From Myxococcales bacterium (GTDB lineage Bacteria > Myxococcota_A > Polyangia > Polyangiales > DASUME01): a stretch of DNA of 64,000 nucleotides. Under the pieces are notes generated by a model that saw only the letters and a program-made list of their open reading frames with translations, was not told the DNA's origin and did no database searches. Position numbers and translations under genes: made by a program. Location of the stretch: positions 6,496,001 through 6,560,000 of the forward strand of contig JASGJH010000001.1 in assembly GCA_047601445.1 (NCBI GenBank), in the 5' to 3' direction. This document shows positions 9,398 through 25,370 of the stretch, piece after piece (position 1 is the stretch's first letter; each line of letters begins with the position of its first letter).

Positions 9398-11053
9398 GTG
9401 ATGCGTCTTTTGGTCTCGTTTGTAGCGATTTGCTTTGGCGGATGCGCGTTCGATTGGTCCTCGTCGCCGGAGCATGCTGGAAAACTCATGACTTCGCCCG
9501 ATGCGTCGACACCGTTCGATGCCTCGACGGAAATGGATGGGGCCGCTCGACTGTCTGATGCCTCGGTGCCCGAGCGCGACGCGGCGACTTGTGTCGGTGA
9601 CTGCCGTGTTCGCTGCATGGAAAGCACGGAGTGTGCTGCGGGCAAGGTCTGCGAAGTGGACACGGGGAGCTGTGTCGAGTGCTACCAGCACGCCCAATGT
9701 TCTGGAGACAAGCCCTTCTGCGATCTCGAAAGCCGCACCTGCGTAGCCTGCCTCGAACAGAAGGACTGTGACCAGGCGGGAGCGAATGACCGATGCGTCG
9801 ACGGCGCATGCGTGTCGGCGTGCAGCACTGGATACGATTGTGCTGCACAACCAGGTAGCGTCTGCGACGCCGCTGAAGGCGCCTGCCTGTGCCTCGCAGC
9901 GGCCACTTCGTGTGCTCCCGACGGCCAAGTCCGAGCCAAGGACAGTTGCGGCTCCTACGGCAAGGTCGTCCAAGACTGTTGCGGTGCCGGCTGCGCGGGT
10001 GCCGCCTGCAACGCGCCCGTCGCCCATGCACGCATGGGGTGTCACGCAGGAGATTTGTACTGGATCGACAGCTGTGGCGTGGCCACGGACTTGATCCAGG
10101 ACTGTTGCGGCGCTGGATGCTCGAACGGCACCTGCGCGCCGGTCGACCCGCAAGCATCCAAGACCTGTTCGGGTGGTGACAGCTACTGGACCGATAGCTG
10201 CGGCGAGCTCGGATCCTTGGCGCAAGGATGCTGCGGTGTCGGCTGCAGCAGCGGTCAATGCAGCGCCGTCAACACGCAGGCGACAAAGCAGTGCTACCAG
10301 GGGCACGTGTACTGGTTCGACAGCTGCGGCACTCCCACCTCGATCGCGGAAAACTGCGGCTCGCGCGACTGCCTCAATGCGAAATGTCGGGCTGCTTGTC
10401 CTTCGGGTACCGTGCCGGTGCCTGGATTTGCCACGTGCATCGATCGCTACGAGGCGAGCTTCTGGAGCGCGAGCGCATGTTCGGGAACGCGCTACGACGC
10501 GGCGCCTGCAGGCTTTCCCAAGTACGTGACCAGCCAAGGCTTGCCCGCAACCTACACGCAGTGGGACACGGGCCAGGTGTACACGTTGCAGCAACCCACC
10601 GTGAACGTGTACGCCTGCAGCGTAGCGGGCGTGCGCCCCACCACCAACATCACGTACTTCCAGGCCAAGCGCGCCTGTGAAAACTCAGGCAAGCGGCTGT
10701 GTTCGGACGCCGAATGGGGCGCGTCCTGCCCCGGCACGTACCCCTACGGGGAGACGTACATCGAGGGAGCGTGCCACCGCACCTACTCGTCGACCGTTGC
10801 CACCACGGGAAGCTCGCCGCAGTGTGAGGGTGGGTTGACCGGACTCTTCGACATGGTTGGCAACGTGAGCGAGTGGCTGCAATGCCCGATCGACGCGCAG
10901 TACTGCAACCTGGCGAGCGGCATCCAGGTCGACAAGGACATGGGTTGTGCGTATCGGCAGGGAAACTCTCTCCGAGAGCCCGGTGTCTATCTCACTAGTG
11001 GCGGCACGTACGTCCCCACCGAAGAAGGAACGCGCTGCTGTCTTTCGCAGTAG
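9398..11053 (+). CDS. Cys-rich repeat lipoprotein with C-terminal FGE-sulfatase (SUMF1/CLec-like) domain
   Basis: Lipobox FGGC, four 42-aa Cys repeats, IDRYEA, GKRLCSDAEW, GLFDMVGNVSEW and terminal GTRCC. Confidence 0.85.
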   Translation: MMRLLVSFVAICFGGCAFDWSSSPEHAGKLMTSPDASTPFDASTEMDGAARLSDASVPERDAATCVGDCRVRCMESTECAAGKVCEVDTGSCVECYQHAQCSGDKPFCDLESRTCVACLEQKDCDQAGANDRCVDGACVSACSTGYDCAAQPGSVCDAAEGACLCLAAATSCAPDGQVRAKDSCGSYGKVVQDCCGAGCAGAACNAPVAHARMGCHAGDLYWIDSCGVATDLIQDCCGAGCSNGTCAPVDPQASKTCSGGDSYWTDSCGELGSLAQGCCGVGCSSGQCSAVNTQATKQCYQGHVYWFDSCGTPTSIAENCGSRDCLNAKCRAACPSGTVPVPGFATCIDRYEASFWSASACSGTRYDAAPAGFPKYVTSQGLPATYTQWDTGQVYTLQQPTVNVYACSVAGVRPTTNITYFQAKRACENSGKRLCSDAEWGASCPGTYPYGETYIEGACHRTYSSTVATTGSSPQCEGGLTGLFDMVGNVSEWLQCPIDAQYCNLASGIQVDKDMGCAYRQGNSLREPGVYLTSGGTYVPTEEGTRCCLSQ

Positions 11054-11064
11054 CTCCCTCTCGC

Positions 11065-12957
11065 CTAATCTCGCCGCCCGAGAGCTCGGTCGAGGTTGTA
11101 CGCGGCGCTGATCAAGGCGAGGTGCGTAAAGGCTTGAGGAAAGTTCCCGAGCGCCGCGCCCGAGGGGCCGATTTCCTCGGAGTAGAGGCCGAGGTGGTTC
11201 GCGTAGCCAAGCATGCGCTCGAACATGAGGCGGGCGCTGTCGAGGTACTTGCGGTCGGCTACGCTTGCTCTGGTGAGTGCTTCGACGAGCCAGAAGGAGC
11301 ACAGGTTGAAGGTTCCCTCGTGGCCGACGAGTCCGTCGGGACTGCGGTCGAGGTCGTAGCGGTACACGAGGCTGTCGGAGACCAGGCCGCCCGCGGACGG
11401 TGGCTTGAGGGTGGCGTCGAGCGTGCTGAGCATGCGCGGGTCCACGGGGGACATGAAGAAGACGAGTGGCATGGAGAGGTTGGCGGCGTCGAGTGAGTCC
11501 ACGCCGTAGGCCTGCAGGAAGGCGCCGCGCTCGCTGCTGTAGCCGCGTGCTTGCACCTGTTCGTAGATGGCGTCGCGCACCGCGAGCCAGCGCTGCCGAT
11601 CGGCCGGGAAGGAGCGCTTGTCCGCCAAGCGCAGCGCGCGGTCGACCGCCACCCAGCACATCACCTTGGAATAGATGAAGTGCTTGGGGCCCCCGCGCAC
11701 TTCCCAGATGCCGTCGTCCTCCTCTTCCCAGTGATCGCACACCCAGTTGACGAGCCGACGCAAGTGCAGCCAGAGATCGTAGCTGATGGGTGCACCGTGC
11801 TTGTTGTAGAGGTAGACCGCGTCCATCAGCTCGCCGTAAATGTCGAGCTGCTTCTGCAAGTGCGCCCCGTTCCCGATGCGTACGGGAGCGCTGCCACGGT
11901 GTCCCCGCAAGTGCGGCAAGATCTCTTCGTGGAGCTCGTGCCGGCCGTCGATTCCATACATGATCTGTAGGGAACCATCGGGCTCCAGCTCCTTGCAGCG
12001 CGCCTCGACCCAGCCCATGAAGTGCCCGGCCTCGCGCGTGAATCCGATGCGCATGAAGGCGTACACGGTGAAGGCCGCGTCGCGTAGCCACGTGTAGCGA
12101 TAGTCCCAGTTGCGCGTGCCACCGATGAACTCGGGCAGACTGCAAGTGGGGGAGGCCACGATGGCTCCCGTGGGTTCGAAGGTCATGAGCTTGAGAGCCA
12201 GGGCCGAGCGATGCACCATCTCGCGCCAGCGACCGGTGTACGTGCACCCGCCGATCCAGTGGCGCCAGTACTCCGCGGTCTGTTGAAACAGCAGGTCCCC
12301 GGTGTGTCCCGCGTACACCGTTCGCGTGCAGTTCTCGCAGGCGCCCTCCGTGAGCGTGAACACGGCGGACTGCCCTTCTTCGAGCGAAAACGTGGTCACC
12401 GCAGCGGGCCCTTCGAGGTAGAGCTTGGTCTCGCTGGCCAGGCTGAAGGCGAGATCGCGGGAGCGAAAGCAGACCCCGCCCGTGATGCGTTGGCTCGTGT
12501 GGACGTCGCGTCCGTAGTTGAAGGCAGGCCGGCAATCGAGCTTGAACTCCATGTGCCCGCGCACGAGGGTCACGCGGCGGATCAAGCGTCTCGGCGTCTG
12601 GTCGCTGGCCTTCGAGATCGGCATGAAGTCGTAGAGCTCGGCCACGCCGTCCGCGCTCATGAAGCGCGTGACGAGCACGTTGGTTTCGGGCCAATAGAAC
12701 TGTTTGCTGACGACCCCATCGGGTTCGACGGGAGCGATCTGGTAGTAGCCGCCGCGCTCGCTATCGAGGATGGAGGCGAACAGCGCTGGGCTATCGAAGT
12801 AGGGGTAGCAGAACCAATCGATGGTGCCGTCGCTGGCCACCAGGGCGCAGCTCCGCAGGTCCCCGATGATGCCGTGATCCTCGATGGCCGGGGCGGCGCG
12901 CGGGGCGCTGATTCCGCGGTGTTCCGCGCTGACGTGAGATGCCGACTGCGCGTGCAT
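11065..12957 (-). CDS. glycoside hydrolase family 15 (trehalase/glucoamylase-like)
   Basis: [35 protein letters not shown] and [10 protein letters not shown] motifs. Confidence 0.95.
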
Positions 12958-13043: not shown

Positions 13044-13931
13044 TCAGGGAATTCCGCGCCACTTTGCGGCGTCGCGCACGAACAGTTCGGTGAGGAAGTC
13101 CATGCAGGCTCGCACACGGGCGACGCGCGTGAGGTCGGGATGCACTACCAGCAAGATGTCTCGCGCCCCCACCAGCTCGGGCACCAAGCGCACCAGGGAG
13201 TCGTCGCGATCGGCGGTGAAGCACGGCAGCGCCACGACGCCAAAGCCGTAGCTGCCCGCTGACTGCGCGGCCGCGATGCTGTTGGCTCTCAGCACCACGT
13301 TCGCCCCGCGTCCATGTCGCTGCAACCACTGAGCGCCGATGATGCTGGTCAGGCTCGTGTCGAAGCCGATCACGTCATGGCCCACCACGTCGGAGTGACT
13401 CGTCACCGGTCCCTTGCGCTCCAGGTACTTGGCCGAGGCGTAGAGTGACCAGCCCGCTTCCCCGAAGCGCTTCACCACGAGCTCCGGGTCCGTCACGTCG
13501 CGAAAGCGCACCGCGAGGTCCGCCTCGCCGCGTCGCAGATCGAGCTCGCGATTGTCGCTCAAGAGCTCCACGAGCAACCCCGGATGGAGCTCGCGCAGCA
13601 CGGCCAGCTCCTGCACCATGTAGGAGTCGATGGATTCGGGCACCGTGAGTCGCACGCTGCCTTCGACTCTGGAGTCTCCGCCGCGCACGCGGCGTGCCAC
13701 GGCTTCGGCATGTTCGAGCATGGCTTCGGCGTGGGGCAGGATATCGAGGCCGGCCGGCGTCAGATGGAGCCCTTCGGGCCCCCGCGTGAAGAGCTTCGTG
13801 CCGAGCGCAGTCTCGAGGGCACCGACTCGGCGGCTCACCGTGGTGTGTTCGCAGCCCAGGCTGCGCCCTGCGGCGACCCAGGTTTGAGCCTGAGCGGCGG
13901 CCAGGAAATAGCGGAGATCATTCCAGTCCAC
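13044..13931 (-). CDS. LysR family transcriptional regulator
   Basis: DWNDLRYFL...TTVSRRVGALE...LFTR HTH and DLRRGEADLAVR. Divergent from the cytochrome c gene. Confidence 0.95.
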   Translation of the reverse strand: MDWNDLRYFLAAAQAQTWVAAGRSLGCEHTTVSRRVGALETALGTKLFTRGPEGLHLTPAGLDILPHAEAMLEHAEAVARRVRGGDSRVEGSVRLTVPESIDSYMVQELAVLRELHPGLLVELLSDNRELDLRRGEADLAVRFRDVTDPELVVKRFGEAGWSLYASAKYLERKGPVTSHSDVVGHDVIGFDTSLTSIIGAQWLQRHGRGANVVLRANSIAAAQSAGSYGFGVVALPCFTADRDDSLVRLVPELVGARDILLVVHPDLTRVARVRACMDFLTELFVRDAAKWRGIP

Positions 13932-14024
13932 GGCAGGCGTGCAGGCTTGCACAGGGGCTGTGCGCAATCAATCCGCCAGAGTCTGCTCGGGGCTTGCGTA
14001 AGACCGCGCAAAGGACCTCACGCC

Positions 14025-14642
14025 ATGTCTTCACAGAAATCATTCTCTGCCCTCACACTCAGTTGGACCGGCACCGCGCTGCTCACGTGTCTTTCGATCA
14101 CGGCCTGCTCCAGCTCCGACGCTCCCAAGTCGCAGGCCCGGGAGCTCATGCCCAGTCAGCGCGACCGCGTCGCGCGCGGCGAGTATCTGGTCACCACCAG
14201 CGGCTGCCACGACTGTCATTCCCCCAAGGTGATGACCGAGCACGGGCCCGAACCAGATCCCAATCGCCTGATGTCGGGTCACCCGTCGGGCGAGGCACTG
14301 CCGCCGGTGGCGAGCACCGATCCTCGCTGGATCGCCTTCAGCATGGGGCTCACCGCCACGGTGGGCCCGTGGGGAGTCTCCCATGCGGCCAACCTCACGC
14401 CGGATGACACCGGCATCGGGACCTGGAGCTTCGAGCAATTCGAGACCGCGATTCGCCGCGGCAAGTCCAAGGGCCTGGTGGGTGCGCGCGACCTGCTGCC
14501 GCCCATGCCGTGGCCCATGTACAAGCACTTCAACGACGAAGACCTGCGCTCCATCTTCGCCTATTTGAAGTCGCTCAAGCCCGTGAAGAACCTGGTGCCC
14601 GCACCGATCCCGCCGGGGGCGGCGCCGCAGGTCGACGGCTGA
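14025..14642 (+). CDS. c-type cytochrome lipoprotein (one CxxCH)
   Basis: Lipobox ITAC, RGEYLV...GCHDCH, ANLTPDDTGIG, PPMPW and DLRSIFAYLKSL. Confidence 0.9.
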   Translation: MSSQKSFSALTLSWTGTALLTCLSITACSSSDAPKSQARELMPSQRDRVARGEYLVTTSGCHDCHSPKVMTEHGPEPDPNRLMSGHPSGEALPPVASTDPRWIAFSMGLTATVGPWGVSHAANLTPDDTGIGTWSFEQFETAIRRGKSKGLVGARDLLPPMPWPMYKHFNDEDLRSIFAYLKSLKPVKNLVPAPIPPGAAPQVDG

Positions 14643-14682
14643 GTGCCCCCGTTCCCTGGCGGAGTTGCCGTTCGCCGGCCCC

Positions 14683-14722
14683 TGTTGTGCCGGCTGCAAC
14701 AGGTGTCGCCGACCACGCGACA
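14683..14722. promoter_or_regulatory. two tandem 19-bp palindromes (TGTYG-N9-CRACA), candidate activator binding sites
   Basis: TGTTGTGCCGGCTGCAACA (14683-14701) and TGTCGCCGACCACGCGACA (14704-14722), starts 21 bp apart. Confidence 0.65.
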
Positions 14723-14763
14723 GTTGGATGAGATGAAGCCTGGAAATTACGAGGGAATCGGAT

Positions 14764-14779
14764 CGGTCCGAAGCTTGCT
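14764..14779 (+). promoter_or_regulatory. candidate sigma54 (-24/-12) promoter of the globin gene
   Basis: CGGTCCG-AAGC-TTGCT has GG-N10-GC spacing with a consensus TTGC -12 box, about 50 bp upstream of the ATG. Confidence 0.55.
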
Positions 14780-14829
14780 GTAGGGGCTGGTACGGCTCGC
14801 ACGGGGCCGCCTACTCAAGGAGCACTCCG

Positions 14830-15243
14830 ATGGCACTCCAGGTCGACCTTCTGCGGCAGAGCTTCGAGCTCGTGGTGGAGCGGAACCCCGATCTCACGGT
14901 TCGATTCTATGAAATCCTGTTCGAGCGCTATCCGCAGCTGAAGCCGATGTTCGACCCGAGCCGGCGCGCCCAGCAGGCCAAGATGTTGGCCACCGCCTTG
15001 GGGGCCGTACTCGATCACCTGGAAGACGCCGCCTGGCTCGAAGCCCACCTGTCGGCGCTGGGCACCCGTCACGTGGACTACGGCGTGACCCACCAGATGT
15101 ACGACTGGGTCGGTGACTCGCTCTTGATCACGCTCGCCGAAGTGGCCGGCGGAGACTGGACTCCCCATCTCCAGGAAGCCTGGAGCGAGGCCTATGGCGC
15201 CATCGTGGGCTTGATGCTGCGACCGGCAGCGGCCGCCGAGTAA
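14830..15243 (+). CDS. single-domain globin (flavohaemoglobin-type 3/3 fold)
   Basis: SF...RFY (B10 Tyr), PMF (CD1 Phe), QQ (E7 Gln), LGTRHVDYGV (F8 His), AWSEAY. AAGGAG RBS present. Confidence 0.95.
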   Translation: MALQVDLLRQSFELVVERNPDLTVRFYEILFERYPQLKPMFDPSRRAQQAKMLATALGAVLDHLEDAAWLEAHLSALGTRHVDYGVTHQMYDWVGDSLLITLAEVAGGDWTPHLQEAWSEAYGAIVGLMLRPAAAAE

Positions 15244-15260
15244 TGCGGTGGAGGAGCGCG

Positions 15261-16766
15261 CTACAACGACGGACGGGAGGAGCGCTTGTTGCCGGTGTTC
15301 ATCCCTCGCTGCATGGCGCTGGAGATCTGTTGGTAGGCACCGGTCCACGCCGCGTTGAGCGCCGGGTTCCAGTGCGCGGAATCGAACTCGGCCAGGCTCT
15401 CGAGCAGCGCCGTGCCCACGTCGTCGAAGTCGGTCGCGCGCACGCCGTAGAGGGCATGTCGACGACCCAGCTCTTCCAGCAGCGGCGTGAGGCGTTCGGG
15501 GCGGTCGAGGTGTTCGAGGGCGAGCTGCAGGGCACCCACGAGCTTGAGCTGTTGTTCTCCCAGGTCGGCCGGGAACAGCCCACGCACGTCGGGACGGGCC
15601 TCGAAGAGGCGCGCGTAGAAGCGGGCCGTCAGTTCCACCGCGCGGGATTCGATGCGGGCGAACGACGCCACCACGAGCTTTTGGCCGCCATCAGGGGCGC
15701 TGGACGGTGCGCGCTGCACCAGCCGCAGCAGCCGCTCGAGGTCCTCCAGGGCGCCGCACAGCTCGATCGCGGTGGGAAAGCGCAAGCTGGGATCGCGCTT
15801 GAGGGAGCGGTCGACGATCTCCGCGAGCATCGCCGGCACCTCCGGGACCAGGCTCGCCAGCGGAGCGGGATCGCGAAACGCGGGATCACGCAGGCCTTCT
15901 CCCGGCCCGATGGTCCCGCGCGGGGGCGAGCCGGTGCACAGCTCGTGCAGCACGAGGCCGAGGCTGTAGACGTCGGAGCGCGCGTCGCCGAGGCCGAGCC
16001 AGACTTCGGGCGCCACGTAGAGCGGCGTGCCGAGGATCATGCCGGGTGCGGTGAGTCCCTCGGCCGCTCCCAAACTCCATTGCTCGTGGGCGCCAAGCTC
16101 TCCGGTTTGCTTCCAGGAATCGGAGATCGGCTGACTGTCCGACGGTTTCAGCGCGCTGTCGGAGTCGGCCGCGCGGGCGGCGGCGCCGAGTGGCAGGGTC
16201 GCGGCAGCGTTGCCTTCGTGCCAGGGCGTGACCGGTTGCCACGAGACCCGCGAGTTAGGGCCGAGCGAGAACTTGGCCAGACCGAAGTCGAGCAGCTTCA
16301 CCACACCGCTGGCATCGACCATGGCATTGGCGGGCTTGATGTCGCGGTGGACCGTGCCCGAGCGATGGACCGCCGAGAGGCCACGCGCCAATCCGAGGGC
16401 GAGATCGAAGACGCGGCGCCAGTGGACCGGTCGCGGGATTTGCTCGAGGCTCTCCCCCTCCACGAACTCGTAGGCGATGTAGGGGCGACCCAGCACGTCA
16501 CCGATGCGATAGATGGCGACCACATTGGGATGCTGCAGGCGCGCGATGGCCTGGGCCTCGACCAGAAAGCGACCGCGCAGGGCCAGGTCCGGCTTACCGG
16601 CGATGAACTTGAGCGCCACGCGCCGGTCGAGCAGCGTGTCGTGTCCGAGGTAGACGTGGCCCATGCCGCCGCGACCGAGCGGCCGGATGACCTTGAACTC
16701 ATCCACCTGTCCGGAGGGGGTCCACTCCTCTGAAGCTGTGCCGAAGCTATCCACGAGTGACGACAA
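15261..16766 (-). CDS. Hanks-type Ser/Thr kinase fused to a C-terminal globin domain
   Basis: GRGGMG, VALK, HRDIKPAN, DFG, GTPLYVAPE and SDVYSLG, then a globin (RFY, GLF, EQQ, LGRRHALYGV, AWTGAY). No TM helix. Start TTG 16766 or GTG 16754. Confidence 0.92.
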   Translation of the reverse strand: MSSLVDSFGTASEEWTPSGQVDEFKVIRPLGRGGMGHVYLGHDTLLDRRVALKFIAGKPDLALRGRFLVEAQAIARLQHPNVVAIYRIGDVLGRPYIAYEFVEGESLEQIPRPVHWRRVFDLALGLARGLSAVHRSGTVHRDIKPANAMVDASGVVKLLDFGLAKFSLGPNSRVSWQPVTPWHEGNAAATLPLGAAARAADSDSALKPSDSQPISDSWKQTGELGAHEQWSLGAAEGLTAPGMILGTPLYVAPEVWLGLGDARSDVYSLGLVLHELCTGSPPRGTIGPGEGLRDPAFRDPAPLASLVPEVPAMLAEIVDRSLKRDPSLRFPTAIELCGALEDLERLLRLVQRAPSSAPDGGQKLVVASFARIESRAVELTARFYARLFEARPDVRGLFPADLGEQQLKLVGALQLALEHLDRPERLTPLLEELGRRHALYGVRATDFDDVGTALLESLAEFDSAHWNPALNAAWTGAYQQISSAMQRGMNTGNKRSSRPSL

Positions 16767-16824
16767 CCGGCCGCATCCTACTTGGATCCCAGGGCCGGGA
16801 GCAAACCGTCTGAGGTGAAAAACC

Positions 16825-18216
16825 CTACTTGAGTCCGGCGCGCCACAGCAGTCGGTAAAATTGTGCGCGATCCAACCCTGCAGCGCGCGCGGCGGCACTC
16901 ACGTTTCCTGCGTGTCGTGCGAGTAGGGCGGTCAGGTAGCGACGCTCGAGCTGGCTGCTCCAGCGCTCCCGGGACTCGCGGTAAGGCAGACTCGGATCGA
17001 TCAGGGCGTCGAGCGAGTCTGACGAATCTGGAGGGGTGGCGTCGAGGTTCGCGGGTACGGCCGTCTGATGCAAGATGCAGCGCTCGAGGTAGTTGCGAAG
17101 TTCGCGCACATTGCCTGGCCAGCGATGACGGGCGAGCTCGCTCAAGAACGCCGGGGAGCGCAGGAACGAAAGCTCAGCACGCTCGGGGTCGTGGCCGAGT
17201 TTGCGCAAGAGATGCGGGACCAATACCGCGAAGTCTTCGCTGCGCTCGCGCAGGGGTGGCAACCTCACCTCCAGCACCGCCAAGCGGAAGAAGAGATCGC
17301 TGCGGAAGCGGCGCGCGTTGACCTCGGCCCGGAGGTCTCGGTGAGTGGCGGCGATGACCCGCACGTCCACTTGCTGCGTGCGGTCGCTGCCCACGGGCTT
17401 GATGGTGTGTCGTTCGAGGACCCGCAGCAGCTTGGGTTGAAGCTCCAGGTCGAGCTCCCCGATCTCGTCCAGCAGCAAGGTGCCGCCGTGCGCCGCCGCG
17501 AAGGCTCCCTGGCGTGTGCCCGTGGCGCCGGTGAAAGCGCCCTTCTCGTGCCCGAATAACTCGCTCTCGAGCAACGCACCGGGGATCGCTCCGCAGTCGA
17601 CTACCACGAAGGGACCATCGCGGCGCGGGCTCTGATCGTGCAGGGCCTCCGCCACGGCTTCCTTGCCCGTGCCCGTCTCTCCCAGCACGAGCACGGTGGA
17701 TTCGCTGGCCCCCACGCGCTCGAGCAGTGCGAACACCTGCCGCATCGCGAGCGAGCTACCGACCATGTCACCGAACACGCTCTGGGTGGAGAGCGGCACC
17801 CGCAGGGAGCCCGGGTCGAGCTCCACGCGCAGGCGGGTCCGGCCCACCTCCACGACCGAGCCAGGCCGAAGCCGCGCGTGCAGCACCGAGACGCCGTCCA
17901 GGCGCGTGCCATTGCGACTCCCCAGATCGCGCACGTGGACTTCATTGCCCACCACGCTGAGCTCGCAATGAAAGCGCGACACCGTGGGGTCTTCGAGGCA
18001 GATGGGGGCACCCTTGGCCGACCCGATGGCGAACTGGGATGCCGGAGCGACGAAGCGCGTGCCCTTTTGGTTTCCGTCGAGCACCACGAGAGCCAGCTGG
18101 CGCACCATGGCGTGGGGACCGTCCGGCGCCTCGAGCATGAGCGTGGACAGGCCCGTAATGGCTTGCTCTGGCGCGTGGGACTCGGGCTCGTCGTCGGCGG
18201 AATTCACGGCGAACAT
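16825..18216 (-). CDS. FHA-domain sigma54-dependent enhancer-binding protein
   Basis: FHA (IG...VSRFHC...DLGSRNGT), Walker [28 protein letters not shown] and a Fis-type HTH ([11 protein letters not shown]). Confidence 0.95.
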
Positions 18217-18378
18217 AGTACTAGAGCGCGCGTGTCCACGCGCAAGCTGGGTTGGCAGGTGAAGGGCGAATTGCGTGCTTGCCGTGCCGAGTTGTTCTGG
18301 TTAACTCAGTTACAGAGCCCGCTGCGGCGCAGCGATCTGCCGGACCCTCGGCAGCCAAGCACTCTTTGTTTTGCGCGG

Positions 18379-18529
18379 CGCGCTCGGGGCGCCCAGCACT
18401 CGTGTCGCGCTCGGAGCGCCCGGCACTCGTCTCTTCGCGTAGTGCGCTCGATATTTCTGCTCGCGCAGTACGCTCGATATTTCTGCTCGCGCAGTACGCT
18501 CGATATTTCTGCTCGCGCAATGCGCTCGA
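18379..18529. repeat. intergenic tandem repeats (27 bp x2, then 26 bp x3.3)
   Basis: CGCGCTCGGrGCGCCCrGCACTCGTsT at 18379 and 18406; CGCTCGATATTTCTGCTCGCGCAGTA at 18445, 18471 and 18497, with a partial copy at 18523. Confidence 0.9.
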
Positions 18530-18588
18530 CCGCGCCGCGCGCCTTCCCTGCCGCCTCTCGCCTTTCAGCCAAATCGACAGGAGAATCC

Positions 18589-19788
18589 ATGCGCTCGAAG
18601 CCTTCCGCGGCCCTGTCCGCGGCGTTGGTCACGTTGTCTTTCGTCTCGCAGGCTTGTTTGCCGGCGCCCGAGCCTGCGGCCTACGAGGAGTGCGTCAAAG
18701 ATCAGCTCCACAAAGGTATCCCCTTGCTCGAAGCCCAACATTTTTGCCGAGCGCACGAGCCGCCTCCGCGGCCTGACCCCTCGAACTGCTTCACGGGCGA
18801 CGCGGTCATCGACGACGCCAGCGACGTGGCCACGTTCGCACCGTTCTCCGAAATCCATGGCGCGCTGCGTGTGTTGTCCGGTGCTCCCAACGTGGTGTCG
18901 TTGCCGAATCTCACGCGTGTGACCGGAGACGTGGAGCTCGTGTACTCCAGCTACCGCCCGGAACCGCCGCCGATGTCGGCTTCCTATCCCGCCATGCGCT
19001 GCGGAGCGATCCGCCAGGTCACGGCCGACGTGCGGGTCTTCCAGCTTCCTCAGCTAACCACCATCGGTGGCGATCTCACGATGGAGCAGGAGAACAGCTT
19101 CTCGGGCATCTCCACGCAACCCATCGAGCTGGGCATGGACCAACTGACCTCACTCGGGGGCAGCCTCAGCATCTCCATCGGACAGTTCGGCGGATCTCCC
19201 TGTGGTCTCACCGGCCTGGGGCAGATCCCCGCAGACCTGACGGTGCGCTTTCTGACTTCGGGCGAGGTCGATGGCAGCATCAGTGGTCTGCTCACCACCC
19301 TCACGCAGGTGGGTGGAACCTTCACCTTCGAGCGATCGCACAACTCCTTTGGCGTGCCGCTCCCTTTGCTCGCTCGGGTAGGTGCGCTGCGTATCCTGAA
19401 GGACGATCCATCCCTCAGCGGCTTTCACTTCCCGAGTCTCACCGATGTCGCCGGATTGGCTGAGCTGTCGGGCACGGGGCCGCTCAGCAACCTCACGGCC
19501 CTCACGCGCGTGGGCTCCCTGTTGGTGCATGACAGTGGCTATCTCTCGCTCGAGGACGTCGGAGGAGCGAGCCTCGAACTCGGCGGCCTCGAGCTGCGGG
19601 ACAACCCCGCGCTGGCTGCCCTCACCACGCCCGCCGGCACGAGCAAGGTCACGCTCGCGGTAAGCGCGCCGCTCACCATCGTGGACAACCCGCTCTTGAG
19701 CGCCGCCGCCATCTGCGCCTTCGTGGACTACGAAGAGGGCCAGAGCTGGAGTGGACCGAGCGACCTCGGCGGCACCGTGTGCCCCTGA
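18589..19788 (+). CDS. lipoprotein with receptor-L-domain-like / leucine-rich repeats
   Basis: Lipobox-like SQAC and repeated LPxLTxxGGxLxI / xDNPxL units. AGGAG RBS present. Confidence 0.75.
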   Translation: MRSKPSAALSAALVTLSFVSQACLPAPEPAAYEECVKDQLHKGIPLLEAQHFCRAHEPPPRPDPSNCFTGDAVIDDASDVATFAPFSEIHGALRVLSGAPNVVSLPNLTRVTGDVELVYSSYRPEPPPMSASYPAMRCGAIRQVTADVRVFQLPQLTTIGGDLTMEQENSFSGISTQPIELGMDQLTSLGGSLSISIGQFGGSPCGLTGLGQIPADLTVRFLTSGEVDGSISGLLTTLTQVGGTFTFERSHNSFGVPLPLLARVGALRILKDDPSLSGFHFPSLTDVAGLAELSGTGPLSNLTALTRVGSLLVHDSGYLSLEDVGGASLELGGLELRDNPALAALTTPAGTSKVTLAVSAPLTIVDNPLLSAAAICAFVDYEEGQSWSGPSDLGGTVCP

Positions 19789-20864: not shown

Positions 20865-21725
20865 ATGAACCAGCCAGCTGCTCCAGCTCAACCCGCTCCA
20901 AGCCCTCTCGCTGTGCCCGCGCCGTGGGATCTGGTGGCGGAGGGATACTCCGCCGAGGTCGACTTGATCATGCGACCGGTCTCCCTCGAGGCGCTGCGCC
21001 GCGCGCAAAGTAAGGCGCCCCATGCCATCGGTCCCGACACTTCGGTGGTCGACGTGGCAGCCGGACCGGGCACGCTCACCTTCGAGCTGGCCTCGCGCAC
21101 CAAGCAGGTCGACGCCCTGGACTTTTCCGAGAACATGCTGGCCGAGCTCACGCAGGGGCTCGCACGACGCGCGATCCAGAACGTGCGCGCGGTGCAAGGC
21201 GATGGCATGGCGCTTCCGTACGCCGACGCGAGCTTCGAGGCGGGCTTCTCGATGTTCGGTCTGATGTTCTTTCCGGATCGCGGACGCGGCTTTCGAGAGC
21301 TCCTGCGCGTGCTCAAGCCGGGAGGCATCGCGGTGGTCTCGAGTTGGGGGCCCCTCGACATTTCCCCGGCCATGGACTTGATGTTCGGTGCCCTGCGCGC
21401 AGCGGACCCGAGCATGCCGCCCCCGCAGCGCAACCTGCTCTCCCTGGAGAACGCCGAGCTGTTCGAGCGTGAGTTCAAGCAAGCGGGCTTCCTGGACGTG
21501 AGCGTGGAGCCCTACGAGTACTTCGTGAAGCTCGATAGCGCCGAGGACTACTGGTACCTGATGACCCGCAGCGCTGCCCCTTGCATGCTCATGCGCAAGC
21601 GTCTGGGCGAGGAAGAGTGGGCGCGTCGGAGCGAGGTTGCACAGGCCTATTTGCGGGACGCCTTTCCCAAGGCGCGCGAGCGACTCTCCACCACAGCGTA
21701 CTTGGGCTTTGGGCGCAAGGTGTAG
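20865..21725 (+). CDS. class I SAM-dependent methyltransferase
   Basis: VVDVAAGPG, LDFSENML, GDGMALPY and RVLKPGG motifs. Confidence 0.93.
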   Translation: MNQPAAPAQPAPSPLAVPAPWDLVAEGYSAEVDLIMRPVSLEALRRAQSKAPHAIGPDTSVVDVAAGPGTLTFELASRTKQVDALDFSENMLAELTQGLARRAIQNVRAVQGDGMALPYADASFEAGFSMFGLMFFPDRGRGFRELLRVLKPGGIAVVSSWGPLDISPAMDLMFGALRAADPSMPPPQRNLLSLENAELFEREFKQAGFLDVSVEPYEYFVKLDSAEDYWYLMTRSAAPCMLMRKRLGEEEWARRSEVAQAYLRDAFPKARERLSTTAYLGFGRKV

Positions 21726-21744
21726 GGGCCGTAACCGCAGGAAC

Positions 21745-23028
21745 TCAGGCCTGTCGCGCGAGCTGCTCGGCGTGACGCGCGAGCCCCTGCACCACCGAGT
21801 GGAAGCTCTTCAGGCGACGTTGCACGGCCTGCGGCAAGCGGCGCGTGATCTCGGCTTCGATCAGCGGCATGCGCGAGGTGCCGCCCGTGAGGCACACGAT
21901 CTCCACGTCCGCATGGTCGACGCCGCCCGCCGCAAGGGTGCGATCCAGGGCCTCGAAGATGCGGTCGAGAGGACGCTGGGCGGCCTGCTGGAATTCGGAT
22001 TGAGCCACGTTGCGAGAGAACTCGGCCCCGGGGTAGTCGAGCGTGACCTCGGTGCGCTCGCGCTCGGAGAGCCGCCGCTTGGCTCCTTCGACGGCTTCGT
22101 ACAGGTCGAACCCGACGCCGTCTTCCACGATCACCCGATACTTCTCGAGCTTCTCGCGATCCGCCAGGTCGAGCACGCCATGCTGAATGTCTGCGAGGCG
22201 ACGCATGATCGTGGTGCGGTCCACCAGCGTGAGATCCGCCGGTGAGCAGAGCAGCTCGATGAGGTCCATCGGCATGGTCAGCACGTTGGAGCCAAAGGGC
22301 ACCCGAAAGCGCGCTTCGGAGCCGAGCTCCGGGGCCACCGAACAGCGCACGAGCGAGCCGTCGAAGGCATCGCCAGCCACCGCCACACCGCCCACGGCGA
22401 GCACGTCGGAGCTCGCGAACTCGCGTGCGGACATGCGCACCAGCGTGAAGTCCGAGGTGCCGCCTCCGAGGTCCACGATCAACACCAGGCGAGGCTCCGT
22501 GAGATCCGAAGCGAAGTCATAGGCCGCGGCCACCGGCTCGGGGCAGAAGCTCACCTGCGTGAACCCTGCGAGCTCGGCGGCGCGCGCCAGGCGCGCCTGG
22601 GCCAGGGCATCCTCATCGTCGTCGTTGGAGAAGCGGGCGGGTCGACCCAGCACCGCGCGCGTGACCTCGGCGTCGAAGTGTCGGCAGGCGCGCTCGCGCA
22701 TGGCGCGCAGGATCGCCGCGATGAGCTCTTCGATGGTCATCGTCTTTTCAGCGATGCGCGTGGCCGTGAAGGCACGCGAGGGGAGGTGACGCTTGATGGA
22801 ACGGATCAGGCGACCACGGAAGCCGTTGGCCACCAGGGCTTTGGTGGCCGCTACACCAAACGCGCTCTCACGAGCGCTCGCGAAATAGAGCGCACTGCGC
22901 AGCACCGTGGGATCCGACGCGTCCGGATCGAGCGGCGCCGGCTCGAACACATGACCGGGTGCTGCCGCAGCGAGCAAGGAGTTGCTGGTGCCGAAGTCGA
23001 TGGCGAAGATGGTGGGTTTCGGCGACAT
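21745..23028 (-). CDS. Hsp70-family protein (YegD-like, ATPase domain only)
   Basis: IDFGTSNS, GRPARF, PEPVAAA, DLGGGTSDF and LTGGTS motifs. Confidence 0.9.
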   Translation of the reverse strand: MSPKPTIFAIDFGTSNSLLAAAAPGHVFEPAPLDPDASDPTVLRSALYFASARESAFGVAATKALVANGFRGRLIRSIKRHLPSRAFTATRIAEKTMTIEELIAAILRAMRERACRHFDAEVTRAVLGRPARFSNDDDEDALAQARLARAAELAGFTQVSFCPEPVAAAYDFASDLTEPRLVLIVDLGGGTSDFTLVRMSAREFASSDVLAVGGVAVAGDAFDGSLVRCSVAPELGSEARFRVPFGSNVLTMPMDLIELLCSPADLTLVDRTTIMRRLADIQHGVLDLADREKLEKYRVIVEDGVGFDLYEAVEGAKRRLSERERTEVTLDYPGAEFSRNVAQSEFQQAAQRPLDRIFEALDRTLAAGGVDHADVEIVCLTGGTSRMPLIEAEITRRLPQAVQRRLKSFHSVVQGLARHAEQLARQA

Positions 23029-23083
23029 GCTCGGCCCGCTTTCGGATCGCGTGCAGCCCCGACTGGCTCGCGCGGCCAGTGCA

Positions 23084-23536
23084 CTAGCACGTGGCTTCGA
23101 GCGCGGGTGCTTCTCCGAGTGCAAACAACGAGGTGTCGGCGGCGTCGTCTCTCCGCGGGCGCCCTCGCCGCTTGGGGGCGGCACTCAAGGGAGCGCCGCG
23201 CTGGACCTCGCCCACCTGCTGCACACGCAAGGCCAGATCCGGATCGCTCTCCGCGAACACGCGGGCGTAAGCCAGGGCGCGTTGAGCGCGCTGGCTGAGC
23301 TGTTCGGCCTGGGCCTGCAGGGCTGCCCGGGCGGCGGCGAGCTCCGCCTCGATTTGCTCGAGCTCCACCTGGGCCGCGCGCAGGTCATCGGCGGCCGACT
23401 CGAGCACGGCCAGATCCATGTCGGGGAACCGCACGGTGGGGAGGGCCTCCGCGAACAGTTCGATCACGGCGCGCGCCAGCGCGGGCACGGGATCGGCGGC
23501 AAACTGGGGCTTGGGACGGTCGACGGGCGAAGACAT
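23084..23536 (-). CDS. hypothetical coiled-coil protein with AT-hook-like motif
   Basis: AAGGAG RBS, helical heptad region, PKRRGRPR. Confidence 0.65.
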   Translation of the reverse strand: MSSPVDRPKPQFAADPVPALARAVIELFAEALPTVRFPDMDLAVLESAADDLRAAQVELEQIEAELAAARAALQAQAEQLSQRAQRALAYARVFAESDPDLALRVQQVGEVQRGAPLSAAPKRRGRPRRDDAADTSLFALGEAPALEATC

Positions 23537-23759
23537 GGCGGCTCCTTTGCTGAACGTATGAGCAGTATATTGGAGGAAGCCTCCCGGGCGCGCAAGAAAG
23601 CAGATCCCCTCGAGCTGCCCATGATCGAGGAGCGAGCCCGCCTTGCCCCCATCGATGCGGGCACGCAATGACCAAGGCGGGCGCCGATCCAGTCCGTTCC
23701 CGTAAGGGCCAGGCGTTCTTCATCGCTCGTGCGGAGTGCGGGCTCGCCGCGGAAACAGC

Positions 23760-25370
23760 TCAGTAAGGCTGTTCGATGATGCGCCGACTCGCGGGCGGAG
23801 CCTCGGGTCCACCGAACGGGTCGGGCTTCCACTGAGGAGAGCGTTCCTTGCTCGCGGGCGCTGCGGGCGTGGTTGTCGCGGGCGTGCCGCTCGTGTTCTT
23901 GGCGGCGCCTGCCGTGAGCTTCTCGAGCTGGATGCGCGCGGGCGGCGGAGCGTCCTGAAACATCACGCTGGCGGAGCGATAGCCCGGTGCGGAGGCTTCG
24001 AGCACGTGCGTTGAGCCATCGACCTTGAAGGCGGCCACGAGCTTGCTCGTGGCCATGCGGTGGCCGTCCAGCACGATGGTGGCCTGGGGCGGATCCACCA
24101 GCACCGACACCTCGTAGCGAGCCACCTCTCCCTTGGCAGTCGAGCTCAACGCCTGGCTCGGCGCTTGCGCTTCAGCCGCGGGTTCCCTGGGCACGGCCGG
24201 CGCCATGGCTGCCGGAGCCGGAGCGGCCGTGCCGAGCTTGGTGGTGTCCTTCAGTGCGACCGTGGTGGGTTCGGGCACCCGCGCCTGGTCGCGCACCACG
24301 GCCCAGGCGACGCCGGCCACCAGGGCTGCGCCGAGTGCGATGGCGGCCTTGCGCTTGAGCGGCGCTGGAGGCGACGACGCCAATGAACCGTCGGGACTCT
24401 TGGTCCCCGAGTGACGCACCTGCACCGGGCGCGCCGTGGACTCCATGTGCACCTCGAGCTCGCTCGCATAGAGCGCGCGGGTGCGCTGACTCGAAAGCGG
24501 CAACAGCGCTCGGGCGAATTCGCGCATGGTCCCGAAGCGCGCGTCGGGCTGCTTTTGCAGGGCCTTGGCCAGTGCTTCGCGCAGCTCGATGGGGGCATCC
24601 GGGACGTAGTCCGAGAGTGGCTTGGGTGCCGCGGTGACGATGCTGCTCAAGAGGTCGTAGAGCGACTCGCCTTCGAAGGGCTTAACGCCCGTGACGCACT
24701 CGTAGAGGATGACGCCCAGCGCGAACACGTCGCTACGCGCGTCGACCGAGCGCTTGGCCTGGGCCTGCTCGGGCGACATGTAGAAGGGCGTGCCCAAGAG
24801 CGCCTTGGTGCCGGTGAGGTTGAAGGCGTCCTGGTCGAGCACCTTGGAGATGCCGAAGTCCACCACCTTGGGCACGCGCAGCTTGCCCTGCATGCTCAGG
24901 AAGATGTTTTGTGGCTTGAGATCGCGGTGGACGATGCCGGCTGCGTGGGCCGCCACCAGACCGGCCATGACCGGGATCAGGAGATCGGCGGTCTCTTGCA
25001 CCCCGAGCCGTCCCACGCGACGCAGGTAGTGGTCGAGGTCCTCACCGTCCAGGAACTCCATCACGAGGTAAGGGCAGCCCGAGTCCGTGGTGCCCACGTC
25101 GATGACGTCGACCACGTGCGGATGCTCGAGCTTGGCTGTGGCGCGCCCCTCGCGGACGAAGCGCTGGGCCAGGTCCGTGTTGGCGTGGGCGGGCAGGAGC
25201 ACCTTCACGGCCACGCGCTTCTGCAGCGTGTCGTGGTGCGCGGCGTAGACGAGCGCGCTCGCCCCCTCGCCGATGGGGCGCTCGATGACGTAAGCACCGA
25301 GCCGGTCGCCCCGGCGCGGCACCCCCGCGCTCCCTAGCGCGGCGAAATCGTTGTCCCCGCTACGCCCCAA
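23760..25370 (-). CDS. membrane Ser/Thr protein kinase with PEGA-like extracytoplasmic domain
   Basis: VAVK, HRDLKPQN, DFG, GTPFYMSPE, a TM helix, then V.VDPPQATIVLDG...HVLEASAPGY. Confidence 0.93.
   Translation of the reverse strand: MGRSGDNDFAALGSAGVPRRGDRLGAYVIERPIGEGASALVYAAHHDTLQKRVAVKVLLPAHANTDLAQRFVREGRATAKLEHPHVVDVIDVGTTDSGCPYLVMEFLDGEDLDHYLRRVGRLGVQETADLLIPVMAGLVAAHAAGIVHRDLKPQNIFLSMQGKLRVPKVVDFGISKVLDQDAFNLTGTKALLGTPFYMSPEQAQAKRSVDARSDVFALGVILYECVTGVKPFEGESLYDLLSSIVTAAPKPLSDYVPDAPIELREALAKALQKQPDARFGTMREFARALLPLSSQRTRALYASELEVHMESTARPVQVRHSGTKSPDGSLASSPPAPLKRKAAIALGAALVAGVAWAVVRDQARVPEPTTVALKDTTKLGTAAPAPAAMAPAVPREPAAEAQAPSQALSSTAKGEVARYEVSVLVDPPQATIVLDGHRMATSKLVAAFKVDGSTHVLEASAPGYRSASVMFQDAPPPARIQLEKLTAGAAKNTSGTPATTTPAAPASKERSPQWKPDPFGGPEAPPASRRIIEQPY

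Follow-up and report, generated by a model that had tools for sequence, protein, structure and literature searches.

A candidate haem-gas circuit of a kinase-globin fusion, an FHA-type sigma54 activator and a free globin in a Polyangiales genome

We analyzed a 64,000-nucleotide stretch of DNA from a soil-dwelling Myxococcales bacterium (assembly GCA_047601445.1, contig JASGJH010000001.1, positions 6,496,001 to 6,560,000), hereafter the window, in which a Hanks-type Ser/Thr kinase fused to a globin, an FHA-containing sigma54 activator and a stand-alone globin gene lie side by side. The three genes may form a sigma54-dependent haem-gas loop, which would use phosphorylation of threonine in place of histidine, and for the whole chain from gas to globin we hold the chances to be evenly balanced. 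The step from activator to globin is the best supported and highly probable; control of this activator by this kinase is the weakest step, although we favor it. We infer from sequence that the fusion binds haem, that a gas controls its kinase and that the activator is phosphorylated. Kinase-globins accompanied by an FHA-fold activator and a sigma54-driven globin recur in other genomes, apparently as a three-part module with a swapped regulator.

Profile and open reading frame analysis finds the free globin, the fusion and the activator all where expected. A sequence-only reading of the window had described an FHA-AAA-HTH activator and a kinase-globin about 60 bp apart on the minus strand, converging on a stand-alone globin that is preceded by tandem palindromes and a GG-N10-GC promoter. 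The measured spacing is 58 bp, with the activator upstream of the kinase, the two globin-bearing genes converge across a 17-bp gap, and both regulatory elements are found before the free globin. The host genome (9.5 Mb, 66% GC) encodes about 145 kinases and 49 sigma54-type activators, has rpoN and gives three globin matches; the closest named homologues are from Polyangiales. The elements of the locus are as follows.

14683..14701, no strand assigned: predicted upstream activator site 1, palindrome TGTYG-N9-CRACA, a motif found near 9 of 11 activators with a YRLLW helix
14704..14722, no strand assigned: predicted upstream activator site 2, 21 bp after site 1
14764..14779, plus strand: candidate sigma54 -24/-12 promoter, with GG at 14765-66 and GC at 14777-78
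14817..14822, plus strand: ribosome-binding site of the globin gene, from sequence
14830..15243, plus strand: stand-alone single-domain globin of the flavohaemoglobin-like F family, 137 residues (Pfam Globin, E 2e-17), predicted output
15261..16766, minus strand: Hanks-type Ser/Thr kinase (residues 24-351) with C-terminal F-family globin (residues 360-495), 501 residues, predicted sensor
15282..15689, minus strand: globin domain of the fusion, with Tyr384 (B10), Phe398 (CD1), Gln405 (E7), His437 (F8) and Phe447 (G5)
16825..18216, minus strand: tail-FHA-AAA+(GAFTGA)-HTH sigma54 activator, 463 residues, predicted transducer
18133..18144, minus strand: Thr25-x-x-Leu28 in the activator N-terminal tail, candidate phosphosite and ligand of its own FHA domain

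The activator-to-globin link is well supported because the window palindromes match a site that accompanies activators sharing the recognition helix of the window activator. Twenty regions holding the closest matches to the window activator's HTH domain were picked without regard to the motif. In them, the palindrome (one mismatch allowed) occurs at 9 of the 11 loci with a YRLLW helix, with 18 matches in 135 kb, and at one of the nine with other recognition helices. The background is 3.1 matches per 237 kb in this genome, one in 233 kb of the NYPN loci described below and four in 669 kb of kinase-globin loci. The motif is about tenfold enriched near activators with the same helix, a figure that is overstated because kin are not independent and that reflects an association test rather than free motif discovery, the pattern being derived from the window. 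Taken singly, the palindrome is no rarity (25 copies in the genome, 45 expected), but its tandem arrangement occurs nowhere else in this genome (2e-4 expected) and has the top tandem score genome-wide, with a matrix seeded from the same motif. The 21-bp spacing is also seen at two other loci, L256 and L271. Five GG-N10-GC strings lie in the intergenic stretch, and the best of them, the candidate promoter, scores 7 of 8 on our own scale against the sigma54 consensus; a score of at least 6 is reached by 2.5% of 3000 random 110-bp stretches. Its unusual string recurs at L255 (13 bases ending in the -24 box, plus the -12 box), downstream of the same kind of palindrome. A promoter scan of 13900-18700 found no sigma70 promoter. 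The palindromes were also compared with the site spacings of MrpC and NifA, and do not match them. By eye, they likewise fail to match the sites given for NorR (GT-N7-AC), NsrR and HcpR in the available part of PMC1274295 or for NmpR in that of PMC11841059. Other clusters of TGTTGC-type sites occur at G000:C1:515800-516700, about 11 kb from a paralogous activator at C1:503679, and at C1:7076869.

The kinase-globin fusion matches Pkinase (E 5e-33) and Globin (E 5e-16) in Pfam, and the residues of its C-terminal globin make binding of b-type haem very probable. Both globins of the window have the 3/3 fold with Tyr B10, Phe CD1, Gln E7 and His F8. A globin domain is present in 107 of the 120 best homologues of the fusion (8000 candidates scored), and by this measure the kinase-globin is a real family and no local accident. 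Among these 107 proteins, Tyr B10, Phe CD1 and His F8 are each conserved in 106 and Gln E7 in 96, and 97 carry Phe or Leu at position G5, where the two free globins of this genome have Tyr. Tyr G5 aids the proximal push of NO (nitric oxide) dioxygenases, and its loss in the fusions would therefore fit a ligand-binding rather than a catalytic role. The kinase domain has the Gly loop, the Lys, the alphaC Glu and the HRDxKxxN, DFG and APE motifs of Hanks kinases; Lys53, Glu70, Asp142, Asn147, Asp160 and Thr247 are kept in 91 of 91 sequences and Thr239 in 77 of them. No membrane helix was found in the fusion, which is predicted to be cytoplasmic. An alignment-based model (predicted local distance difference test, pLDDT, 81.8; predicted template modeling score, pTM, 0.69, despite about 90 disordered residues; pTM 0.58 for the Atlas model) is compatible with a fixed packing of globin on kinase. 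The best fold match of the modeled kinase is PknB, the nearest structures to the fused globin are the Hell's Gate globins 3s1i and 3wfw, and the clusters obtained from the ESM Atlas were generic kinases apart from a single Myxococcota kinase/hydrolase cluster.

Among 401 genomes of the class, 27 contain the full kinase-globin junction, at 30 loci altogether (seven candidates scored per genome); among 401 genomes of the order, 26 contain it (one partial match dropped). A metagenome scan gave two of 80 loci that span the junction, both under 2 kb and too short to show gene order. A C-terminal alpha/beta-hydrolase domain is added in many homologues, for instance L014:5779-8331 and many of P0006-P0120, and a zinc finger at the N-terminus in some. 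Automated JGI names already give kinase plus haemoglobin for some homologues. The literature searched has no globin-coupled Ser/Thr kinase, although subscription globin reviews and kinome supplements may list the architecture. Related arrangements include open frames of 357-581 residues that each contain two globin domains and lie next to a Ser/Thr kinase gene (L180-L184), an F-family fusion of kinase, leucine-rich-like repeats and globin (L059:6707-10000), and an F-family globin ahead of a chemoreceptor-like tail (L058:6988-9615).

The flanks were compared at 52 kinase-globin loci, this one included (one full-junction match, G683, was left out), ten of which reach a contig end within 2.5 kb of the gene. 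No conclusion drawn here depends on G475. A sigma54-type activator adjoins the fusion at 18 of these loci, 17 times with an FHA fold; a free globin is present at seven, and activator and free globin together at six. The kinase domain lies within 1.5 kb of an AAA domain at 11 of the 52 loci versus 5 of the 145 kinases of this genome, an approximately six-fold excess that is inflated by kin. The six trios (window, L055, L056, L155, L211 and L222, the last with a fusion that appears frameshifted at the end of its globin) span five families and five gene orders, and in a seventh genome, G470, the activator is 7 kb away. This recurrence supports a functional unit. The sequence-only reading had proposed a circuit of sensor, transducer, cis-sites and output: its chain from activator through palindromes and sigma54 to the globin is well supported, and the trio returns in five other genomes of four families, but the activator there is not orthologous and the cis-site is different.

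The five other trios have an activator from a separate clade (support 100/99), in which the GAFTGA loop reads NYPN or similar. The N-terminal domain of this clade receives no Pfam call, and its model matches FHA folds (Z 12.4 against DgcB, root-mean-square deviation 2.0, 94 residues aligned). All six free globins beside other kinase-globins follow GTGCGCGMAC palindromes and a clear -24/-12 box. A GAYSGA clade and one further FHA activator also flank kinase-globins, giving at least four separate FHA-fold activator lineages at such loci. The NYPN family has 93 matches in 66 of 401 genomes; 7 of 20 further high-scoring NYPN loci adjoin globins, and the NYPN site is also found before non-globin genes. 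We read these data as an exchange in which activator and cis-site were probably replaced together while kinase-globin and globin output were retained. The NYPN activators (L055:10906-12372, L056:7289-8710, L232-L251 and G000:C1:4020422-4022059) still adjoin near-perfect sigma54 promoters and a palindrome of their own. They may use a non-canonical loop for activation, act as repressors or work together with a second activator; two flank the fusion in both L151 and L152. A distinct globin clade (Shimodaira-Hasegawa, SH, support 99; Phe at E11) stands directly downstream of NYPN activators at L062:7984-8376, L233:5112-5484, L234, L235, L238, L240, L248 and L232, often in the vicinity of a kinase and another sigma54-driven globin; it may represent a split form of the module, with a stand-alone sensor.

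The window activator consists of FHA, Sigma54_activat and HTH_8 domains, with Walker A and B, an intact GAFTGA loop and a Fis-type HTH all present. The FHA domain keeps Ser80, Arg81 and His83 (Ser-Arg-x-His) and Asn102-Gly103, and the nearest solved FHA domains are GarA and OdhI. A Thr-x-x-[LIV] pattern is found within 20 residues before the FHA domain in 13 of 16 close relatives with Gly-Ser or Gly-Thr, against 4.7 expected by shuffling. In Bdellovibrio, DgcB is activated by its own phosphorylated tail, and the pocket residues named for it include Ser, Arg and His (PMC6733907, available part). Thr25 is proposed as the switch because of this tail pattern, the proximity to GarA and OdhI, and the precedent of DgcB.

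Taken together, the following sequence of events can be proposed. The ligand state of the haem would switch the PknB-like kinase, which we consider likely, probably through packing of globin and kinase in cis followed by activation-loop autophosphorylation at Thr239 and Thr247. The kinase would then phosphorylate Thr25 in the activator tail, and the phosphorylated tail would dock into the FHA domain of the same or a neighboring subunit, by analogy to GarA/OdhI and DgcB, thereby licensing the AAA+ ring. Two activator dimers on the palindromes would open the sigma54 promoter and induce the globin. From what is known of its family, the globin may scavenge NO or buffer O2 and so damp the signal.

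For the gas read by the fusion we have a slight preference for NO, and O2 or hypoxia is possible but less probable. The lean to NO follows from the free globin, which groups in one clade of 20 rows with sigma54-driven and NsrR-like-divergent globins (SH approximate likelihood ratio test 91) in a quick tree of 64 rows, with kinase-fused rows thinned by name; the grouping hints at NO. The Rrf2 protein divergent to these clade globins resembles NsrR and RirA, at scores below their cut-offs, and the arrangement is found in this genome, in four genomes of the same genus and in G050. Pairing of NsrR with globins marks NO defense (PMC1274295, available part). The second free globin (G000:C1:2764568-2765543, L052; also L065-L068 and L070) is divergent from such an NsrR/RirA-like Rrf2 gene; the stretch separating the two contains an inverted repeat, and the globin gene adjoins rpoB/rpoC in this genome. 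An NsrR-independent second copy, as in the window, could equally serve another cue such as hypoxia.

The closest known relative in design is the NmpRSTU system of M. xanthus, with AfGcHK of Anaeromyxobacter, from the same phylum, where a soluble haem-globin kinase feeds a sigma54 activator on tandem palindromes, as would happen here (PMC11841059, available part). In the same source, the NmpRSTU protoglobin histidine kinase needs haem, and the components are S-family protoglobins, histidine kinases, a REC activator and the site GCGCA-N5-TGCGC. The window instead combines a C-terminal F-family globin, a Hanks kinase, an FHA activator, TGTYG-N9-CRACA and a globin output; no REC or histidine kinase domain was found in its three proteins, and its palindrome differs from that of NmpR. 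S-family globin-coupled sensors share the plan of a 3/3 globin fused to a signaling output, with the globin N-terminal and methyl-accepting chemotaxis protein (MCP), cyclase, histidine kinase, STAS or other outputs (available parts of PMC7475203 and PMC3287990). The fused globin of the window is C-terminal, falls in PF00042 and has no protoglobin match at E 0.001.

The window activator resembles GarA/OdhI and DgcB (PMC6733907, available part) in its N-terminal Thr tail before an FHA domain with a Ser-Arg-x-His pocket; unlike them, it has an AAA+ sigma54 output and a Ser or Thr in place of the Gly-Arg arginine. The NorR-hmp and NsrR-hmp systems share the NO-linked induction of an F-family globin, NorR acting through sigma54 and tandem sites (PMC1274295, available part). 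NorR has a GAF domain and GT-N7-AC sites, whereas the window activator has an FHA domain, a different palindrome and a NorR score of 312 bits against a cut-off of 476. Hmp has a C-terminal FAD/NAD reductase domain, which the window globins lack: their matches to NF009805 are confined to its globin part (77 and 61 bits against a cut-off of 432), and there is no flavohaemoglobin among the three globin matches of this genome. NorR and NsrR sense NO themselves, through non-haem Fe and Fe-S respectively, and use no kinase. The FHA enhancer-binding proteins of M. xanthus, reportedly the subject of work by Jelsbak et al. in 2005, have the same FHA-AAA-HTH order and Ser/Thr kinases nearby; we know of no input signal, cognate site or globin link for them. 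Judged by these features, the locus is not a member of the NmpRSTU, NorR, Hmp or S-family globin-coupled sensor systems.

Several observations weigh against the proposed circuit, and part of them would be explained if the activator drives the globin on a signal that bypasses the adjacent kinase-globin, coming from another kinase or a phosphorylation-independent partner while the fusion serves other substrates. The genome offers many candidates among its 145 kinases, and no activator stands beside the fusion at 34 of the 52 loci, nor a free globin at 45 (in both counts, 10 loci are cut by contig ends); all 15 Sorangium loci have neither partner within 6 kb. The pairing of kinases with FHA activators is generic, a kinase being next door to 5 of the 12 FHA activators of this genome and to none of its 37 other activators. 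The FHA domain itself lacks the canonical arginine: Gly65-Ser66, which an earlier reading had missed, replaces Gly-Arg, and the equivalent of position 66 in 25 relatives is Ser in nine, Thr in seven, Lys in nine and Arg in none. The Gly-Arg arginine is a phosphate contact, present in GarA in the nearest-structure comparison; Arg101 might stand in for it. Moreover, the activator clade varies between loci. The six-fold excess of activators beside kinase-globins, the four or more FHA-fold lineages that have come to lie there and the persistence of the trio through five gene orders speak for a link to the fusion, and we consider the bypass unlikely. It is also conceivable that the circuit is one unit whose fused globin reads no gas and responds to haem supply or redox state, a lipid-like ligand or contact with the free globin. 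Most relatives carry the extra hydrolase domain, mostly without its catalytic Ser (present in 5 of 38 scored by a crude pattern, 56 examined), which suggests a small-molecule input, and the Phe or Leu at G5 departs from the Tyr of free globins. Yet the Tyr B10/Gln E7 pair typical of O2- and NO-binding F-family globins is kept, and the output globin belongs to a clade tied elsewhere to NsrR-like repressors; a non-gas input is quite unlikely. As regards NO, the genome already has an NsrR-like-linked globin, and a second NO circuit could therefore be redundant.

Further points weigh against the gas-to-globin circuit. This exact combination was found in this genome alone, and the search found no fusion in nine genomes of the same genus (72-99% complete). 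The window activator was rejected as an orthologue of the usual partners, falling in a different clade of the tree. None of the 20 loci of the activator's closest HTH relatives has a globin, and both the motif and the threonine pattern were chosen post hoc. The co-occurrence that the sequence-only reading had suggested checking is seen for the trio at 6 of 52 loci, but not for the tandem TGTYG-N9-CRACA: it is in none of 400 other genomes, and at one genome in 401 the exact tandem motif was rejected as a conserved marker. The globin could be under a different driver, either the C1:503679 paralogue binding these sites or read-through from the upstream LysR and cytochrome c genes, the cluster being a recent chance assembly. 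The paralogue and the window activator are sisters (100/95) whose helices are nearly identical, high-scoring tandem sites also occur at C1:7076869 and 516612, and the scan saw no terminator-like site between cytochrome c and globin. However, an activator of the matching clade is found 2.1 kb from the top-scoring tandem site of the genome. The site also falls within the 8-20 kb region around the activator at 9 of 11 such loci, and analogous trios recur; we consider another driver very unlikely. The gas-to-globin circuit is the reading we prefer.

Upstream of the palindromes lies a gene that is probably outside the unit:

14025..14642, plus strand: c-type cytochrome gene, stopping 40 bp before site 1

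A LysR gene is divergent from it (window 13044-14642 for the pair); neither recurs beside other kinase-globin genes, and both were rejected as members of the unit. Tandem repeats (27 bp x 1.9 and 26 bp x 3.7) lie upstream of the activator gene at 18379-18529. The neighbors at 9398-12957 and 20865-25370 are ordinary and include a Cys-rich protein with a formylglycine-enzyme-like domain, a GH15 trehalase-like gene, a methyltransferase, an Hsp70-like gene and another Ser/Thr kinase.

In the available parts of PMC7475203 and PMC3287990, globin-coupled sensors signal by MCP, cyclase, STAS or histidine-kinase outputs. If a Ser/Thr kinase is indeed controlled by a gas here, haem sensing would gain both a new output and a new globin lineage. 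Myxobacteria are rich in Ser/Thr kinases, as this genome illustrates, and to our knowledge few of their FHA activators have a known input; the circuit would provide the first defined chemical input for them. The locus gives a candidate ligand, kinase, phosphosite, DNA site, promoter and reporter gene, so that the path from kinase through FHA to sigma54 could be studied with three soluble proteins. For the sensor there is cultured material to work from, since named Sorangium genomes carry the fusion. More broadly, and tentatively, the Polyangia may have a family of haem-gas-regulated Hanks kinases that signal to FHA sigma54 activators by a GarA-like phospho-tail, with the NYPN partner clade driving sigma54 promoters and the loop rewired at least twice, activator and DNA site being swapped together and the globin output kept.

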